From the sequence record NC_103567.1: DNA of 49,223 nucleotides; one strand, given 5' to 3'. Positions 1 through 41,525 of the stretch are shown piece after piece; within the stretch, counting starts at the first letter, position 1, and every line of letters starts with the position of its first letter. Under the pieces are notes generated by a model that was not told the origin of the DNA, ran no database searches, and saw nothing but the letters and a program-made list of their open reading frames with translations. Position numbers and translations under genes: made by a program. This DNA is from a phage.

Positions 1-137
1 AGATTTTGTGATTGAAATTGATTTGATTTGATTAGATTTGAGTAGTGAGAGAGCAGAAATAATCACACCTTGCCGATCAGAGAAAACTTTTCCCGCAAAA
101 CATCACTCCAGGCTCCGCGCTGTTATCTTCCGTTCAT

Positions 138-235
138 GGGTGTTCACAAATCTACCCGGCGTAGTTCTCCGACGGTTCTATGTGTTAGCCACACAAAAAG
201 AACAAAATAAAACTCTATATAATAATAATTAAAAC
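138..235 (+). repeat. copy A of a duplicated ~100-bp control-region element (GGTGTTCACAA...CCGGCGTAG...ACAAAAAGAACAAA...CTATATAATA)
   Basis: Aligns by eye with 28578-28675 at roughly 75 percent identity, followed in both places by TATATA-rich then GT-rich sequence. Confidence 0.7.
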
Positions 236-522
236 AGTAAGTTATCTATATATATGTATTTATTTGTTTCTATACTGTTTCTAATGTTCCATATGGTTAG
301 TGGTGGGTGATATATTGTTGATGGTGGTATTTGGTTAATATTTAGCCTATTGCGCCTGGTCTAGTGGTGGATTGAGAAAAATATATTTATATATAGGAAT
401 CCGCGAAAATTCATGAACGCATGAACAGCCAAAGAACGCGTTTTCAATTTCAAGTAAAACATTAACTTACGCTGAAAATTTGTTCCACTATAGGTATGGA
501 ACGTAAGCACACAAAAAACTAC

Positions 523-550
523 TTGACGAGAACAAATGGCGGCGATAATA
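523..550 (+). promoter_or_regulatory. sigma70-like early promoter (TTGACG-N16-ATAATA); -10 sits in the loop of inverted repeat GGCGGCG / GCCGCC
   Basis: Near-consensus -35 and -10 with proper spacing about 40 bp upstream of the ATG at 588. Confidence 0.6.
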
Positions 551-587
551 TGCCGCCACGAACTAACCAACAGGAGGATAACCAATC

Positions 588-1040
588 ATGGCAACTACCA
601 AAGAGTTTTGCGACAGCTTGCGTGAACTGGCGAAGAAGTTAGCAAGCGGAGAGCTTGATAATTACATCATTGCCGATGCTCTTATCGAGGACAATCTCGA
701 CGAGCAAGACAGGAAGAAGGTTAACGCCTCATACATTCGCACGATCATGAATCGCGTCCCTGACGTGAAGGAGATCGGAACGGTTTCAATTACTCGCACT
801 GATCCGGTTGAGGAAGCGCCAGGGTTTAAGGTGGCAATCAACCGCGAGGCAAAGCGACAGGTATTCACAAAAAATGATATTCCGGCACTGGAAAAGAGGA
901 TCGGTGAGCGAATCGCCAAGCGACTGCTAAACACAATGCCAAATATCACGGATCTGGAAGGTGAACAACTCCAGGGCGCGGCAATCGGAATTAAGCGTTA
1001 TCAGGATCTGATTAAGTCAATGGTTGAGCAAGGGGAATAA
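588..1040 (+). CDS. hypothetical early protein, first gene of the rightward early block
   Basis: 150-aa ORF; AGGAGG about 11 nt upstream of ATG; directly downstream of the promoter at 523-550. Confidence 0.75.
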   Translation: MATTKEFCDSLRELAKKLASGELDNYIIADALIEDNLDEQDRKKVNASYIRTIMNRVPDVKEIGTVSITRTDPVEEAPGFKVAINREAKRQVFTKNDIPALEKRIGERIAKRLLNTMPNITDLEGEQLQGAAIGIKRYQDLIKSMVEQGE

Positions 1041-1042
1041 TC

Positions 1043-1276
1043 ATGTTTTGTCCGATCCGTTTTAATGGTGTAGACCTGCTGAAAGAATCCAGGATGTGTA
1101 CAACTGCAATTGTTAATCGCCTATATCTAAGAAGTGGCGGCAACATAGTAAAGCTGGAATATCGTTCCGGTCGCATAATCCGCACAGACACCGGAAGATG
1201 GATAGAAACAAATGAATTGCTATGGCACAACGCAAAAGGCCGCTTATACTTCAAAACGTTTGAGGATATCCGCTAA
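1043..1276 (+). CDS. hypothetical protein
   Basis: 77-aa ORF starting 3 nt after the previous stop; stop overlaps the next start (TAATG). Confidence 0.55.
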   Translation: MFCPIRFNGVDLLKESRMCTTAIVNRLYLRSGGNIVKLEYRSGRIIRTDTGRWIETNELLWHNAKGRLYFKTFEDIR

Positions 1277-1389
1277 TGAATACGAAATATATTGAGTTAT
1301 GTTTATGCTTGCTTATCCTTGCGATTGCGGCAACTTTCGGATCGCTTGCATTCCTGGTTTTTGCTGACGCTATCGGGAGACTTCAATGA
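1276..1389 (+). CDS. small hydrophobic single-pass membrane peptide (37 aa), first of three translationally coupled peptides
   Basis: Hand translation MNTKYIELCLCLLILAIAATFGSLAFLVFADAIGRLQ; start overlaps upstream stop; not in ORF track because under 60 aa. Confidence 0.5.
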   Translation: MNTKYIELCLCLLILAIAATFGSLAFLVFADAIGRLQ

Positions 1390-1493
1390 AAACATTCGCA
1401 TTTGTCGCTGCAATGTGGTGCGTTGCAATCGGTCATCCTGGCGTGGCGCTTGTTGTTCTTGGTTTGATATTGTTGGGGGCGTTTGATGAATAA
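1386..1493 (+). CDS. small hydrophobic membrane peptide (about 34 aa), second of three
   Basis: Hand translation MKTFAFVAAMWCVAIGHPGVALVVLGLILLGAFDE; ATGA start/stop overlap with the previous peptide. Confidence 0.5.
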   Translation: MKTFAFVAAMWCVAIGHPGVALVVLGLILLGAFDE

Positions 1494-1599
1494 GAAACTT
1501 TTAGATCATGCCGTGGTGTTCTTTATCGCTGCTGCTGGATTTTCGCTGTTGTCAATTGCTTTTTCAATCCTTGCTTTTGCCGTGTCAATGCTGAAATGA
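1486..1599 (+). CDS. small hydrophobic membrane peptide (about 37 aa), third of three
   Basis: Hand translation MNKKLLDHAVVFFIAAAGFSLLSIAFSILAFAVSMLK; start overlaps previous stop. Confidence 0.5.
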   Translation: MNKKLLDHAVVFFIAAAGFSLLSIAFSILAFAVSMLK

Positions 1600-1620
1600 C
1601 GGATTACATCCTGATTGGCA

Positions 1621-1641
1621 AATAGCACTTTTTGTTAAAAC
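1621..1641 (+). promoter_or_regulatory. 21-bp early-promoter-associated motif, class I (AATAGCACTTTTTGTTAAAAC)
   Basis: Matches the dispersed motif; TGG-CATAAT extended -10-like element about 22 bp downstream; gene follows. Confidence 0.6.
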
Positions 1642-1696
1642 TCGATTGGGGTAGTTTGGCATAATTACCACATCGAAACGAAACGAGGAAAACACA

Positions 1697-1855
1697 ATGA
1701 CTACCTTAATCACCTGGGAACACGAAACAAGCCAGCCAGTAACCCGCGAGTTTGAAACTCTTAGCCAGGCTTATCTGCTTGCTGCTAACGGTGGTTATTA
1801 CAAGGCGCAAGTTGTTGATGAAATGGGAGTGATTGTTTATGAGTTCCATGCATAA
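1697..1855 (+). CDS. hypothetical small protein (about 52 aa)
   Basis: ATG preceded by GAGGA; hand translation MTTLITWEHETSQPVTREFETLSQAYLLAANGGYYKAQVVDEMGVIVYEFHA; coordinates approximate. Confidence 0.4.
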   Translation: MTTLITWEHETSQPVTREFETLSQAYLLAANGGYYKAQVVDEMGVIVYEFHA

Positions 1856-2120
1856 TTTCCGCAGCTACACGCAGGAAGTGGATTTTGATGGGATCAAGTT
1901 ACCAATTCCTAACATATACCGCTATATCACTCGTGATGAATACGGATTTATAAACGCCTGGAGAGATAAGCCCAAAAAGGTTGGCAATGAATACGGCGAC
2001 GGCTCAGAGATGCCGATCACGTTAGGTCATCAAACTGGCGAGAATGTAGCGGCTGTAATGCGCAAATATCGCCGCAGCCGCACAAACTCATTAATTTCTA
2101 TCTTTGGCATACCGGAGTAA
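1839..2120 (+). CDS. hypothetical protein
   Basis: ORF track 1833-2120; first ATG at 1839 has GGAGTG about 8 nt upstream. Confidence 0.6.
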   Translation: MSSMHNFRSYTQEVDFDGIKLPIPNIYRYITRDEYGFINAWRDKPKKVGNEYGDGSEMPITLGHQTGENVAAVMRKYRRSRTNSLISIFGIPE

Positions 2121-2125
2121 TAAAA

Positions 2126-2383
2126 ATGTTTGAACTGAAACGCGTAACTGTTGAGATCCTGAATGATGGCTCTTACGATGGAATGAAACACTTAACCTTC
2201 CCGATCCGCATTGAGAATTGCATTGATTACGGTATTGAAGTTGGCATGGTTGACGTTCCTCTTGATGCACTTATCGCGGCTGGCTATGACAAAGAGAAAG
2301 GCCAATGTGCTGATATACCGGATAGCTATGAAAGCGACACACATTTCCCGTTCACCTATGGCGAATGCCGGATTGTTGATTGA
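2126..2383 (+). CDS. hypothetical protein
   Basis: 85-aa ORF immediately after the previous gene, same strand. Confidence 0.6.
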   Translation: MFELKRVTVEILNDGSYDGMKHLTFPIRIENCIDYGIEVGMVDVPLDALIAAGYDKEKGQCADIPDSYESDTHFPFTYGECRIVD

Positions 2384-2455
2384 GGTGATAAAGTGAGCAG
2401 TTGGCACAATGAGCACGTAATGCAATTCTACCGACACAGAATAAAAAAAATGATC

Positions 2456-2476
2456 AATAGCACGAATTGCTAAAAC
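2456..2476 (+). promoter_or_regulatory. 21-bp motif, class II (AATAGCACGAATTGCTAAAAC)
   Basis: Motif followed by inverted repeat GGGCTT...AAGCCC with TATAGT in its loop; gene at 2533. Confidence 0.6.
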
Positions 2477-2532
2477 AGAATTTTGGGCTTGCGGTATAGT
2501 AAGCCCATACCAAACAACGAGAGGATCACAAA

Positions 2533-2859
2533 ATGGAATTAGCACGCAACGCGGTTTATGGATTACACCTTAAAGGCGGCAAAGGCTCAACTTATGCGCA
2601 CCTGTTTCATGTTAACGAGCGCGGTCAAATTGATATTGCAATGTTTGTTGACCAAAGGGTTAAGAAAGGCGGTGAGGGTGATTGTGATACATTCCGACCG
2701 GATTTGGTTGAATACGATCACACATACAGTCATGATCACTGGATTGGTCACGGTCGCAAGTTTGTAATGGTTAATAGCCACGTTACCGACACAAGCAAAA
2801 TCACTGCATCGCAGTATAAGCGCATGGCTCGCAAGGTTATGAAGTTAGAAGCGCAATAG
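2533..2859 (+). CDS. hypothetical protein
   Basis: 108-aa ORF downstream of a motif copy; GAGAGGA-like RBS. Confidence 0.6.
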   Translation: MELARNAVYGLHLKGGKGSTYAHLFHVNERGQIDIAMFVDQRVKKGGEGDCDTFRPDLVEYDHTYSHDHWIGHGRKFVMVNSHVTDTSKITASQYKRMARKVMKLEAQ

Positions 2860-2931
2860 CACAAAATGTTAAGCGGTCATGTGTGCTGATGGGTATAATG
2901 ACCGCATCAACCAACCAAAGGAGAAGTAAAA

Positions 2932-3039
2932 ATGTCTAAAGAGTCTATCAAGCAGTTTCTGAAATACGGTTCTATGATTGTGCTCGCTACCGTTGTGCTG
3001 GCTGGCATCGCGTATAGCATTATTGAGTTTGCGGGGTAA
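2932..3039 (+). CDS. small membrane peptide (35 aa)
   Basis: AAGGAGAAG RBS, ATG, hand translation MSKESIKQFLKYGSMIVLATVVLAGIAYSIIEFAG; TATAAT-containing promoter-like sequence about 40 bp upstream. Confidence 0.5.
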   Translation: MSKESIKQFLKYGSMIVLATVVLAGIAYSIIEFAG

Positions 3040-3042
3040 TTG

Positions 3043-3606
3043 ATGTTTACGATCAACTTGTGGGGAAGGGATTATGTTAATCCATATGTTGCGACAAAAC
3101 AGCGTTTCGTTATTTTCGACCTAGACGGCACATTGTCAAATGGTGAGCACCGCTTGCACCTGTTGCCAACTGTTGATTTGCATCTTACTGAAAGCTGGAG
3201 TGAGTTTAATCGCGCCGCAAAGGATGATTCACCATTCAGCAATAACATTTCCGTGTGCAACGCCATGTTTGACGCCGGATACCTGGTTATCATCCTAACA
3301 GGACGTAGTGATGAAGTTGAAGCAGAAACGCGAGCCTGGTTAGCTGAAAACGGCGTTTCTTTCGATTGGCTAATTATGCGCCGCGCGGAGGACAACCGGA
3401 AAGATACAGTAATCAAAGAGGAAGTTTTACGGACTATCGGACTAGATCGCATTGTCGCATGTTGGGATGACTCGCCAAACGTTATTGCACACCTTCGCGG
3501 CCTGGGCTTGACTGTTTACCAGGTAATTGACTACGGCGAGCAGTTACACGATCACTTAAAATCTCACGGCGTGGAGGAATTGAGCGATGACAGCAAAGCT
3601 AATTGA
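3043..3606 (+). CDS. HAD-superfamily phosphatase (nucleotidase or polynucleotide 3-phosphatase-like)
   Basis: N-terminal FVIFDLDGTLS matches HAD motif I (DxDGT); 187 aa. Confidence 0.7.
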   Translation: MFTINLWGRDYVNPYVATKQRFVIFDLDGTLSNGEHRLHLLPTVDLHLTESWSEFNRAAKDDSPFSNNISVCNAMFDAGYLVIILTGRSDEVEAETRAWLAENGVSFDWLIMRRAEDNRKDTVIKEEVLRTIGLDRIVACWDDSPNVIAHLRGLGLTVYQVIDYGEQLHDHLKSHGVEELSDDSKAN

Positions 3607-3775
3607 AGATCGGCATGGTGATAACGTGCTTATTTACATCGAAGGGAAATCGGTGTGGATTGACTGCAAATATGAGGATGACACACATTTGCAGTTTCGC
3701 GGAATTTTTGACAAGAAAGGCGCATTGGAGTTAGCGGAACACATCAAGCGTCTTGCTGAAGAATTACCGGAATAG
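3587..3775 (+). CDS. hypothetical protein
   Basis: 62-aa ORF overlapping the end of the phosphatase gene. Confidence 0.5.
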   Translation: MTAKLIEDRHGDNVLIYIEGKSVWIDCKYEDDTHLQFRGIFDKKGALELAEHIKRLAEELPE

Positions 3776-3785
3776 AGGATTTATT

Positions 3786-3971
3786 ATGTTGACTTTTATC
3801 TTGATCGCTATCGTTTTAATTCTGTATGTTTGCGGCGCTTTCCTGATGCGAGCACTACTAAAAGAGGCTGACGCTGATGATAAGGATAGTTGGAAGCCGA
3901 TTCTTTTATGGCCTGGTTATATCATCGTGCCAATTTACGAGCTAATCCGCGATGGTGAGTTTAAATGGTAA
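3786..3971 (+). CDS. small membrane protein
   Basis: ORF track 3753-3971; internal ATG at 3786 with AGAGGA RBS; N-terminal hydrophobic helix LTFILIAIVLILYVCGAFLM. Confidence 0.55.
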   Translation: MLTFILIAIVLILYVCGAFLMRALLKEADADDKDSWKPILLWPGYIIVPIYELIRDGEFKW

Positions 3972-3991
3972 ATAGCACTTTTTGCTAAAAC
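3971..3991 (+). promoter_or_regulatory. 21-bp motif, class I
   Basis: AATAGCACTTTTTGCTAAAAC then inverted repeat GGCACA...TGTGCC enclosing TGATAAAGT. Confidence 0.6.
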
Positions 3992-4048
3992 TTGCTAAGG
4001 CACATTTGATAAAGTGTGCCTTGTCGAGACAAGCAAGGAGAATGACAA

Positions 4049-4360
4049 ATGAAAGTATTTACCACTGTTGGATTTAGAACTAACCATTATTACATTGTTA
4101 ACGATGACGGCGTTATTTTTGCCTCACAAAAACCGTTCTTTGATGGTGATAATTTTTTCAAGAGCGTATTTCAATCGCCTGGTGTTTTGGTAAGTATGTG
4201 CAATCGTGGCTCGTTAGCGCCTTACAACAAAGAGGCTAAGGATTTTGTTAATAAGGCAAACGGCATCAAGAGAAAGCGAGAAATGAATAAACACGTTATC
4301 GCCGTTATTGTTTGTGTGGCAATTGCCGTTGGTTCTATTTTCATGGGGGTTTGGTCATGA
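4049..4360 (+). CDS. hypothetical protein with C-terminal transmembrane anchor
   Basis: 103-aa ORF; AAGGAGAA RBS; C-terminal VIAVIVCVAIAVGSIFMGVW. Confidence 0.6.
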   Translation: MKVFTTVGFRTNHYYIVNDDGVIFASQKPFFDGDNFFKSVFQSPGVLVSMCNRGSLAPYNKEAKDFVNKANGIKRKREMNKHVIAVIVCVAIAVGSIFMGVWS

Positions 4361-4539
4361 CGCTTGATAATAAATTAGAAACGCAAAAGACGATCAACTA
4401 TTTACTCGCTCTTGCTGATGCACTTGAAAAAGGCGAGGCAGCATTAAACGATGTTTGCATTGAGTCTAGAAATCAAGGGTGGAGTCAGATCGAAGAAACG
4501 TTAACGGTGCAATATTTTAAGGTGAACAAAGATGGCTAA
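4357..4539 (+). CDS. hypothetical protein
   Basis: ORF track 4312-4539; likely start at internal ATG 4357 (MTLDNK...). Confidence 0.45.
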   Translation: MTLDNKLETQKTINYLLALADALEKGEAALNDVCIESRNQGWSQIEETLTVQYFKVNKDG

Positions 4540-9129: not shown

Positions 9130-10701
9130 ATGTTGATATGGGAAGATTTAAGCAAGTTAGAAAAGCTGGCTATTAAAGAATTGAGTACACACGATTTTGA
9201 TACTTTCGTTAAAATCTGGTTCCCGATCCAGCAAGGGGAAAAATGGATTCCTAACTGGCATCACCTTTATATCGCAAGAGCGATTGATGAAATTATTGAA
9301 GGTACGCGGAAAGATACGATCTTTAATGTAACTCCAGGCTCAGGTAAGACGGAATTACTTTCTATCCATTTCCCTCCGTATTCTTATTTAAAACTTAATA
9401 AGGTGCGGAACCTAAATATTTCATTTGCCGATACGCTTGTTAAACGAAACAGTAAGCGTGTGCGTGATCTGGTTAATTCGCGAGAATGGCAAGAGCTTTT
9501 CCCTGCAAAAACTGGTACAAGCAAAGATGATGAATTTCAGGTTTTAAATGACGCTGGCAAAGTTCGACTTGAAATGATTAGTAAATCAATGGGCGGTCAA
9601 ATTACTGGTAGCCGTGGCGGTTATATCACTCCTGGTATTTATTCCGGTTGCGTTACGCTTGACGATCCAGAAAAGCCCGATGATATGTTTTCGAAGGTGA
9701 AGCGTGAGCGCGGTCAGATGATAGCGAAGAACACCATTCGATCACGTCGCGCACATTCAGAAACGCCAATTATCGTTATCCAGCAGCGTTTACATGCGCA
9801 GGATATGACATGGTTTCTGATGAATGGCGGAATGGGTATTGAATTTGATCAGATATCAATTCCGGCTATGGTTACAGAGGAGTACGGGAAATCACTTCCT
9901 GATTGGTTGCAGCCGCACTTTGAAAAGGATGTGCTTTCGTCTGAATACATCGTTATTGACGGCGTGAAGTATTATTCTTTTTGGCCTAGCAAGGAAAGCA
10001 TTCATGACTTGAAAGCGCTACGCGATGCGGATTTGTACACGTTCCTTTCTCAGTATCAGCAAGATCCAATTGCTCTTGGAGGTAACGCAATTAACGTTGG
10101 ATGGTTCCAGTATTACGGAACCGGAGAAAAATCAACTATGCCAAAACCGGATCGCTTTGATTATACGTTTATTACAGCAGATACCGCTCAGAAAGAAGGT
10201 GAGCTAAACGACTACAGCGTTTTATGTTATTGGGGCATGTTCAAAGGCCGTATATATTTTATTGACGGTGTGCGCGGAAAATGGGAAGCGCCAATGTTAG
10301 AAACGCAGTTTAAAGCGTTTGTTAAACAGTGCTGGAACCGTAACAAAGAATGCGGAAACTTGCGTAAAATTTACGTGGAAGATAAAGCGAGCGGTACAGG
10401 TTTGATCCAGAATTGCCGCAAAGCATTTCCGATAGAAATTACGCCAGTGCAACGCGATAAAGACAAAGTAACGCGCTGCATGGACGCTCAGCCAGTGATC
10501 AAGAATGGTTATGTTGTATTGCCTGAATCGCATCACATGCTTGCTGAATTTCTGGCAGAGGCGGCGGCATTCACTTATGATGATAGCCATCCTCATGATG
10601 ATATTATGGATAACCTTTTTGATGCGGTTAATATTGAGCTTAACCTTGCTGATAATGCGGTTGATAGAATGAAGCGTTTAGCTGGATTAGCGAAGCGTTA
10701 A
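9130..10701 (+). CDS. terL: terminase large subunit
   Basis: About 523 aa with Walker A-like PGSGKT and the size and position expected for a TerL ATPase-nuclease. Confidence 0.85.
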   Translation: MLIWEDLSKLEKLAIKELSTHDFDTFVKIWFPIQQGEKWIPNWHHLYIARAIDEIIEGTRKDTIFNVTPGSGKTELLSIHFPPYSYLKLNKVRNLNISFADTLVKRNSKRVRDLVNSREWQELFPAKTGTSKDDEFQVLNDAGKVRLEMISKSMGGQITGSRGGYITPGIYSGCVTLDDPEKPDDMFSKVKRERGQMIAKNTIRSRRAHSETPIIVIQQRLHAQDMTWFLMNGGMGIEFDQISIPAMVTEEYGKSLPDWLQPHFEKDVLSSEYIVIDGVKYYSFWPSKESIHDLKALRDADLYTFLSQYQQDPIALGGNAINVGWFQYYGTGEKSTMPKPDRFDYTFITADTAQKEGELNDYSVLCYWGMFKGRIYFIDGVRGKWEAPMLETQFKAFVKQCWNRNKECGNLRKIYVEDKASGTGLIQNCRKAFPIEITPVQRDKDKVTRCMDAQPVIKNGYVVLPESHHMLAEFLAEAAAFTYDDSHPHDDIMDNLFDAVNIELNLADNAVDRMKRLAGLAKR

Positions 10702-39767: not shown

Positions 39768-39990
39768 AAAGGAAACTTGGGAGCTTGCTAAAAAAGGCGG
39801 TCTTGATGAAGGGATCGCCAAAATAGCAAAGTATTTCGATATTAAAGACGTGTGCGTTATTGTTGGTGACGAAATGGCGTATGTTGAAGAAAAGCCGCGA
39901 CGTGTTCACCGTGTTCCAGCAATACCAACAACAATCGACTATAAAGAAGTTATTAACAAAACCAAAGAGCAGAAGAAATATTACAAATGA
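39748..39990 (+). CDS. hypothetical protein
   Basis: ORF track 39634-39990; likely start at internal ATG 39748 (MKVKKGKK...). Confidence 0.4.
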   Translation: MKVKKGKKETWELAKKGGLDEGIAKIAKYFDIKDVCVIVGDEMAYVEEKPRRVHRVPAIPTTIDYKEVINKTKEQKKYYK

Positions 39991-40073
39991 GATACATTTC
40001 TGTTATTTTGTTGCCGCCTGTTATCGCTTGGGTTATTATGTACGCCGTTGTTATGAATTAAGAGGATGTTAAA

Positions 40074-41300: not shown

Positions 41301-41525
41301 ATGAGAGACTTTCTTTTAATGGCGCAAAACTCTTTCGGAGGTGCAACGGTAGTTGGATCTTTTACTGGTGAGTTTTTGCTTGCACTTGCTACGTTTATTT
41401 TGTTCGCTATTTTCGGCTGTTGGGGCGCATGGCTGAAATGGCGTGATAGTAAAGCGATCCGAGAGGCTTTAGATTCAGGGGATTTAAAAACGGCGCTTAA
41501 TCTACGGCAGAAAGAGAGGGTGTAA
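41301..41525 (+). CDS. holin (pinholin-like, two transmembrane helices)
   Basis: 74 aa with two hydrophobic helices and a charged C-terminus; immediately upstream of the endolysin. Confidence 0.7.

Follow-up and report, generated by a model that had tools for sequence, protein, structure and literature searches.

A tandem array of three single-helix micropeptide genes in the first rightward operon of Escherichia coli phage U136B

Coliphages carry small, non-essential exclusion or envelope genes that are expressed early and whose products are held in the membrane or anchored as lipoproteins; they include imm and sp of T4, gp15 of HK97, llp of T5, and cor of T1 and phi80, and among these products Imm, Sp, and gp15 are 80-170 residues long and possess extramembrane parts. 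A second group of described systems consists of single-pass peptides of 29-79 residues that bind larger membrane proteins, namely AcrZ, MgrB, MgtS, KdpF, CydX, and gp56 of phage SPO1, the last of which is encoded by one of several clustered small early genes that have a promoter each. The subject of this work is an array of three consecutive micropeptide genes, here called p1, p2, and p3 (1276-1599, + strand), in the sequence record NC_103567.1 of phage U136B, whose whole stretch of 49,223 nucleotides is referred to as the window and provides all the positions given below. The three genes are real, and their products are ordinary small hypothetical membrane proteins. U136B is an Escherichia coli phage of the genus Tlsvirus that depends on TolC and lipopolysaccharide, and its genome has been reopened for synteny with phage TLS (PMC8104045). 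Over positions 1000-1700, the best matches among the collected phage records are the Citrobacter phages Sazh (97.3% identity) and Stevie (96.2%).

Specifically, p1 (1276-1389, +) codes for a single-helix membrane peptide of 37 residues (MNTKYIELCLCLLILAIAATFGSLAFLVFADAIGRLQ; U136B_003), p2 (1386-1493, +) for a membrane peptide of 35 residues (U136B_004; phrog_22353), and p3 (1486-1599, +) for a membrane peptide of 37 residues when counted from its ATG, with a TTG located at 1483. The ATG of p1 shares one base with the TAA of a 77-residue gene (TAATG), the start of p2 overlaps the stop of p1 (ATGA), and the start of p3 overlaps the stop of p2 by 8 nucleotides (ATGAATAA). A first-pass annotation, made from the letters of this DNA without database searches, had described three tandem open reading frames (ORFs) with these overlaps and had proposed that they are translationally coupled; all three are present as described, and the start/stop overlaps support the coupling arrangement. 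Shine-Dalgarno-like motifs are found 6-9 nucleotides 5' of the starts, in the form of GAGGA for p1 (1262-1266), GGGAG for p2 (1375-1379), and GGGGG for p3. Each product is predicted to cross the membrane once, through one hydrophobic stretch of at least about 19 residues with a best 19-residue Kyte-Doolittle mean of 2.60 (p1), 2.36 (p2), or 2.37 (p3), in agreement with the single helix per ORF claimed at first reading, and the annotators of Sazh likewise assigned one transmembrane domain (TMD) to each of the three.

The expectation by chance was evaluated by counting the ATG-initiated ORFs of 30-59 residues that reach a 19-residue Kyte-Doolittle mean of at least 2.3 in all six frames of the window. 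Four ORFs pass this filter and three of them are p1-p3, compared with 0.9 +/- 0.9 ORFs in Markov-1 random genomes, where a same-strand triple within 400 nucleotides occurs in 0 of 40; the array is far beyond chance expectation. The fourth ORF that passes the filter (starting at 10505, +; 55 residues, MVMLYCLNRITCLLNFWQRRRHSLMMIAILMM...) looks like an off-frame artefact within a larger gene.

Coding status and competing reading frames

The homologous region was gathered from about 45 loci, originating from 20 annotated phage records, from IMG/VR, from metagenome and Logan contigs reached through homologs of the DUF7174 protein, and from a degenerate DNA pattern search. For p2, the proportions of synonymous (pS) and nonsynonymous (pN) differences derive from pairwise Nei-Gojobori comparisons. 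The p2 frame is uninterrupted in each of the 39 loci with p2 (27 distinct DNAs, 25 peptide variants), has a pS of 0.336 and a pN of 0.120 (pN/pS 0.36), and is the only one of the six frames without interruption in every sequence; all the variants keep the hydrophobic-helix character, and W11, C12, P18, and the LILLG motif are nearly invariant. The p3 frame is open in 29 of 29 loci and codes for an identical peptide in 22 of them (pN/pS 0.14); 11 of its 15 distinct base variants are silent (binomial p=8e-5), and the seven changes found in p3 of KKP3830 and GJL01 are silent without exception. Because both frames are open in all the loci that carry them and silent changes are in excess, p2 and p3 are solid genes. 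As for p1, it has an unbroken frame in U136B, Sazh, Stevie, GSP032, and the contig L048 (pN/pS 0.20 at a pS of 0.36), is broken by a 1-nucleotide deletion at codon 4 in UTK0006 and by a 10-bp duplication in DanielBernoulli, and is precisely absent from GJL01, KKP3830, and PHB07, in which the 77-residue gene directly abuts p2. Frames other than these three contain stops or show ratios of 0.5-1.8, and the low pN/pS values (0.14-0.36) that identify helix-coding genes belong to p1, p2, and p3 only. Judged from these substitution patterns, all three are real genes under purifying selection, and p1 is dispensable and decaying in some lineages. Frame-breaking changes in close relatives, which the first-pass annotation had named as evidence that would count against the genes, count in part against p1, where they are found in UTK0006 and DanielBernoulli; p2 is open in 39/39 loci and p3 in 29/29.

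Synonymous divergence is uneven along the array, the pS of p3 (0.11) being about one third of that of the adjacent p2 (0.34); this suggests either a recent horizontal spread of the segment that runs from p3 to the DR element, a repeat located downstream of the array, or an additional constraint at the nucleotide level. An ungapped alignment of p1 and p3 has identical residues at 11 of 37 positions (shuffle p ~0.001), but unrelated pairs (p3 with p4, and p4 with a 24-codon ORF, two other small ORFs of the window discussed below) score similarly in this test; the shuffle null is therefore too lenient, and paralogy of p1 and p3 is unproven.

The three genes are mostly already known as annotated hypothetical genes. 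Exact p1 and p2 are present in GenBank as QRV71203.1 (U136B_003) and QRV71204.1 (U136B_004), and further annotated counterparts are CPT_Sazh_003/004/005, Stevie gp60-62, and DanielBernoulli bas08_0067/0068; the Tlsvirus proteins annotated with a TMD are the same genes as p1-p3, 97-100% identical and with the same positions and overlaps. Accordingly, the earlier statement that the array is missing from the ORF track is correct insofar as the three ORFs lie below the 60-residue cut-off, which is the sole cause of the omission, and it does not extend to GenBank, where p1 and p2 were already deposited; nor are the genes unannotated, since p1-p3 carry TMD notes in Sazh and Stevie and the U136B record annotates p1 and p2. 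A 64-residue ORF that overlaps p1 and p2 (1292-1486, +) had been regarded as spurious, and this view is confirmed: it starts with TTG, is not hydrophobic (grand average of hydropathy 0.17), is cut to 46 residues in Sazh and truncated or interrupted in other relatives, and shows no excess of silent sites in its frame.

The annotation of p3 is less uniform. The records that annotate it include those of Sazh, Stevie, DanielBernoulli, and Mishu, and it appears to be unannotated in U136B and at least nine other records. An antisense ORF of 40 residues (1506-1628, -), whose exact sequence is QRV71205.1, is annotated in at least nine relatives (ZerotoHero, UTK0006, LL5, GJL01, KMB25, SorkZaugg, phSE-2, CF1, and Brooksby), and the position of QRV71205.1 directly after U136B_004 in accession order suggests that it is also U136B_005. 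That this antisense ORF is the real gene of the interval and p3 the artefact is a reading of almost negligible probability. At least ten GenBank records annotate the ORF, its frame is uninterrupted in every relative, and silent changes are in some excess (8/15), but the ORF shares its wobble phase with p3, so that this excess is inherited from p3 through the common third-codon positions: its pN/pS is 0.25 inside p3 and rises to 1.80 in the 9 codons that lie outside. Moreover, its GTG start is formed by the CAC within the conserved DR element and lacks a Shine-Dalgarno motif, it runs opposite to the transcription of all the neighbouring genes, and it is gone whenever p3 is swapped out; it is judged a spurious ORF.

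In TLS, gp03 (59 residues, kept in the 2024 reannotation) is p3 preceded by additional N-terminal residues that are not conserved and whose codons overlap p2, and the frame of this extension is closed upstream of 1483 in U136B; p2 of TLS has a TTG start. The present analysis thus adds to the existing annotation p3 as the selected frame, in place of the antisense ORF or of the 59-residue gp03, the unannotated p2 of TLS, and the combination of a constant p2 with a swappable slot. Its practical value lies mainly in annotation correction, given that the records of U136B, which serves as a model for evolutionary trade-offs linked to TolC, and of at least nine relatives apparently carry a spurious antisense gene at the place of the well-conserved p3, and that the annotation of the archetype TLS omits p2 and over-extends gp03. 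In a clustering at 90% identity, the cluster that holds p3 is represented by a 2106-residue protein of Trichoderma viride and also includes p2-like members of 35 residues; this composition is evidently a clustering artefact of very short hydrophobic sequences.

Constant p2 and exchangeable downstream slot

Across the loci compared, p2 behaves as the constant core of the array and p1 as an optional add-on. p2 begins with ATG, GTG, or TTG, in every case directly beside or overlapping the stop of the gene before it, and this upstream neighbour varies, being p1, the 77-residue gene, an 81-82-residue gene, a 64-residue gene, or the DUF7174 gene. On the opposite side, the ORF after p2 begins 8 nucleotides before the end of the p2 stop in 26 of 28 distinct configurations (ATGAATAA or ATGATTGA); this -8 register holds whatever the downstream gene encodes, and both exceptions are indels of a G5 run that still keep p3 translated. 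The slot that follows p2 is occupied by p3, by a transmembrane (TM) peptide of 22-24 residues (MIEWLIVLMGIATILIVALSSK or MNDLEWLIVLMGAFTVAIVLWCSK), by a TM peptide of 28 residues (MNEEIERLLLLIGVSWFVYHCVISITKM), or by a lipoprotein of 100 residues with a lipobox (MNKKIIGVCLAALFLIGC...; phrog_16585, a family of unknown function), the latter at L043:2298-2600, L046:1432-1734, and L047:2283-2585. Apart from the lipoprotein and p3, the occupants are three unrelated TM peptides of 22-28 residues, and every occupant is predicted to be either a TM peptide or a lipobox lipoprotein. The swapped segment begins immediately 3' of the start codon that the variants share and reaches the DR element (1616), and the cassette swaps coincide exactly with the ORF borders. 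The 100-residue lipoprotein also contains a GIY-YIG-like motif (YRGIYIITDKKTGKEYIGVSG), with weak matches to SegE_GIY-YIG of Pfam (E=0.02) and UzuA of PADLOC (E=9e-5); a nuclease-like motif is odd for a secreted lipoprotein.

The G5 run (1475-1479, +) is the Shine-Dalgarno-like element of p3 and an indel hotspot. A G4 run in the metagenome contig L040 gives a p2-p3 fusion of 70 residues (P0001), and a G6 run in SorkZaugg gives a p2 of 33 residues with a TGATG junction; the run could act as a switch that is prone to slippage, or its variants could simply be sequencing errors. If P0001 is a natural fusion, both helices could coexist in one polypeptide.

The strict conservation of the overlap geometry irrespective of the downstream gene is one of the observations that would be expected if at least p1 and p2 had no function at the protein level and acted as leader-type cistrons that pass ribosomes downstream, or were decaying remnants; the frameshifts of p1 in two of seven lineages and the tolerance of p2 to substitutions, with its 25 variants, point in the same direction. 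This explanation is very improbable in view of the purifying selection at the amino acid level (pN/pS 0.20-0.36 at a pS of about 0.34), of the hydrophobic helix that is retained by all the p2 variants, and of the near invariance of W11, C12, P18, and LILLG.

As to distribution, the p1-p3 module is confined to Tlsvirus-like phages among the loci compared; in Warwickvirus, the gene that follows the DUF7174 gene codes for a lipoprotein of 87-90 residues (DUF4884), and in two Klebsiella Drexlerviridae other small TM ORFs are found in this place. p2 matches phrog_22353 over 35/35 positions (E=2.8e-25), and p1 and p3 have no PHROG match. A query made of concatenated p1, p2, and p3 retrieved three longer proteins only (TLS gp03, a similar form of 63 residues, and the 70-residue p2-p3 fusion), IMG/VR searches anchored on the flanking genes returned known isolates only, and a degenerate p2 DNA pattern run against JGI metagenomes found two true copies among nine matches, the rest being unrelated genes that share FAFVAAMWC.

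Operon context and neighbouring genes

The first rightward operon of U136B ends with the three cistrons of the array. A sigma-70-like promoter (TTGACG-17-TAATAT; 523-551, +) is predicted 5' of the operon by a consensus scan (9/12 matches). The first cistron (588-1040, +) encodes the DUF7174 protein of 150 residues (Pfam PF23796, E=4.5e-51; phrog_4841), a homolog of which heads the operon in all the relatives examined; its AF2 model (mean predicted local distance difference test score, pLDDT, 75) has no PDB fold match below E=0.04 and shows only faint PadR/winged-helix-like matches. The second cistron (1043-1276, +) encodes the soluble 77-residue protein (phrog_18849) and in relatives is absent or replaced by unrelated genes of 81-95 residues. 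The chain from the DUF7174 gene through the 77-residue gene to p1 is closed by junctions of 2 nucleotides and 1 nucleotide.

Downstream of p3, the DR element aaATAGCACnnnTTGnTAAAA (1616-1642, +; repeat family D1) ends the array unit and opens the next one. The window contains 16 copies of the DR repeat, ATAGCAC-N3-5-TTGnTAAAA, located on the + strand at 1616-1700, 2457, 3972, 5104, 6491, 30034, 35746, 38204, and 39528, with 7 more on the minus strand; a -10-like hexamer lies about 21-22 nucleotides 3' of the repeat, between the arms of an inverted repeat. This repeat has been described for TLS (PMC11447400). Positions 1618-1700 alone match more than 700 phage records, among which T4-like Klebsiella and Enterobacter phages of 176 kb show about 82-84% identity.

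Two genes located 1-2 kb downstream of the array have known counterparts in T4. The first is a homolog of T4 Stp (2393-2473, +; 26 residues, GTG start, MSSWHNEHVMQFYRHRIKKMINSTNC; PF08133, E=1e-8; phrog_6763, E=9e-15), the equivalent of which is named stp (gp05) in TLS; about 570 nucleotides further downstream lies the second, the polynucleotide kinase gene (3040-3606). In T4, the Stp peptide activates the host PrrC anticodon nuclease, and Stp and polynucleotide kinase are counter-defence genes. From this context only, namely the promoter-like repeats and the vicinity of Stp and polynucleotide kinase, we infer that the array belongs to an early region, as had been assumed at first reading.

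The two additional small peptides that the first-pass annotation had listed are likewise present. p4 (2932-3039, +), immediately 5' of the polynucleotide kinase gene, encodes a membrane peptide of 35 residues and is a genuine gene that many records annotate (TLS gp08, "1 TMD"; phrog_17726, E=4.6e-28, 35/35 positions) whose exact sequence occurs on 104 contigs; comparison of p4 with p1-p3 gave no convincing relationship. The 24-codon hydrophobic ORF (39987-40061, +) has a start that overlaps the upstream stop (ATGA) and a frame that remains uninterrupted in TLS and SP-126 (70-75% identity) and in relatives at a greater distance (43-57%); it carries no annotation in Stevie, its exact peptide was not found in the protein collection, and on the conservation of its frame it is probably a real gene. 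Lastly, a protein of 72 (TTG start) or 62 residues with an N-terminal TM helix (MLTFILIAIVLILYVCGAFLMRALLK...GEFKW) is encoded at 3753-3971 (+); homologs of it can be recognised in the corresponding position of Klebsiella phage K50 and Warwickvirus PeterMerian, and its conservation within Drexlerviridae is therefore much broader than that of p1-p3.

Functional readings and comparison with known systems

The reading that we tentatively favour, at a confidence somewhat below an even chance, is that the array is an accessory envelope module, which would hinder or exclude the DNA entry of other phages or protect the membrane of the infected cell. In such a module, the five cistrons would be read from one promoter and their coupled translation would fix the ratios of the products; p1-p3 would insert in the inner membrane as single helices, and p2, made in a fixed ratio with a swappable envelope partner, would insert together with this partner early in infection and alter an envelope property, the most likely effect being exclusion or hindrance of foreign phage DNA or protection of the membrane of the infected cell. 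A module for conflict at the envelope is proposed because p2 is constant, because it stands in an obligate register with a swappable envelope partner, and because the neighbours are counter-defence genes; targeting to the envelope is proposed because every slot occupant is a TM peptide or a lipoprotein, and an accessory, fast-turnover character because the swaps are ORF-exact, p1 is gained, lost, or decayed, and only Tlsvirus-like phages carry the module.

Several observations weigh against the envelope module. The peptides, to which the first-pass annotation had tentatively ascribed a part in host takeover at the membrane, in toxicity, or in the exclusion of superinfecting phages, have no match to toxin, holin, or exclusion families in Pfam, NCBIfam, PADLOC, and PHROGs, which return for p1-p3 families of unknown function or nothing. 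The central motif of p2 (IGHPG, IDSPG, or IGSPF) shows no co-variation with the slot occupant, which argues against a specific interface between p2 and its partner. The p2-p3 fusion, seen in a single metagenome assembly and located at a homopolymer run, may be erroneous, and the -8 geometry may be kept merely because the shared GATGA encodes both the C-terminus of p2 and the next start. Furthermore, receptor-level exclusion lipoproteins of T1-like phages are reportedly encoded near the receptor-binding genes, according to the paper on the BASEL collection, and this is not the location of the array.

The same database searches are relevant to other readings. For p1-p4, nothing was found in Pfam, NCBIfam, or PADLOC, and PHROGs gave unknown-function families for p2 and p4 only; specifically, there are no matches to known exclusion families in PHROGs and Pfam, to the anti-phage defence models of PADLOC (p1-p4), or to toxin families (Hok, Ldr, TisB, Ibs, and others) in Pfam and NCBIfam at E<=1-5. 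An Rfam scan of positions 1-4500 gave no match to known RNA families, novel RNAs being beyond its reach. In the literature, no data on expression or function were found for p1-p3 or for the early genes of any Tlsvirus.

A role in lysis was considered and rejected. The holin homolog (MRDFLLM...) sits at 41301-41525, 40 kb from the array, p1-p3 are not beside the endolysin, and the lysis genes of TLS are gp67-69; moreover, the C-termini of p1, p2, and p3 (GRLQ, FDE, and SMLK) consist of 3-4 residues and do not form the charged hydrophilic C-terminal domain of holins. The location of the holin homolog thus places the array outside lysis, and our best guess is that it is not part of lysis, of a classical toxin-antitoxin system, or of a known toxin family. 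A lipoprotein or signal peptide nature of p1-p3 was also rejected, no lipobox being present. It is improbable that the peptides are membrane-damaging toxins of the type I or holin-like kind, which depolarise the host early to shut down its metabolism. In size and hydrophobicity they resemble TisB, Ldr, and Ibs-type peptides, and infection by T1 is reported to alter the permeability of the cytoplasmic membrane early (Keweloh and Bakker, 1984, cited in PMC13407855); against this stand the lack of a match to any toxin or holin model, of a charged C-terminal tail, and, in the Rfam scan of 1-4500, of an antisense RNA or long structured leader, the 40 kb that separate the array from the lysis cassette, and the harm that early depolarisation would cause to a phage that needs an energised cell.

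A further, rather unlikely candidate is that the peptides inhibit or modulate specific host inner-membrane proteins, such as a transporter, a protein of cell division, or the sensor or effector of a membrane-bound anti-phage defence, by binding to their TM helices, as modelled on AcrZ, MgrB, and SPO1 gp56; the swappable slot would then track variation of the host target. The almost invariant p3 protein (identical in 22 of 29 loci), its Ser/Ala stripe (S20, S23, S27, A30, and S34), which is typical of helix-helix packing, the arms-race-like turnover of cassettes at the locus, and the counter-defence neighbours Stp and polynucleotide kinase are all compatible with this mechanism. However, there is no match to a known family of small-protein regulators or anti-defence proteins, the sequence permits no host partner to be inferred, and the lipoprotein found in the same slot suggests a target in the periplasm or outer membrane instead of one within the membrane.

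Returning to the envelope module, a more speculative form of it, to which we assign a rather low probability, regards p2 and the slot gene as a two-part, hot-swappable device, in which a constant anchor of 35 residues would be co-translated with partners (four unrelated TM micropeptides or a lipoprotein), each tuned to a different competing phage or envelope target of the host, and the G5 run would toggle separate, fused, and truncated forms; the locus would be a diversity-generating exclusion or anti-defence locus shuffled via DR promoter cassettes. If the slot is indeed an exclusion or anti-defence locus, it would offer a small and easily engineered system for bare TM helices that act on the bacterial envelope.

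In comparison with known systems, p1-p3 resemble type I toxins (Hok, Ldr, TisB, Ibs, and ShoB) in length and hydrophobicity and, unlike these, belong to a coupled operon of five cistrons, match no toxin model, and have no antisense RNA among the families of Rfam searched over 1-4500. With small membrane-protein regulators such as AcrZ or gp56, p1-p3 have no family match, and the likeness is one of form only, to be taken as an analogy. The exclusion proteins of coliphages differ from p1-p3, which are bare helices with no sequence similarity to them, and are approached by the slot in that one of its variants is also a lipoprotein. Lastly, the slot can be set beside the PeSL promoter-terminator cassettes of T4-like phages (PMC2839356, PMC4122927). 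PeSLs are defined in myoviruses and have a different consensus, and their link to the DR element of Tlsvirus would be an analogy; in both cases, small ORFs are swapped between conserved regulatory repeats, and the DR element marks the exact end of the p3 slot. In this respect, the array illustrates how the smallest phage genes evolve, as ORF-exact cassettes kept in a fixed translational register beside a conserved partner.

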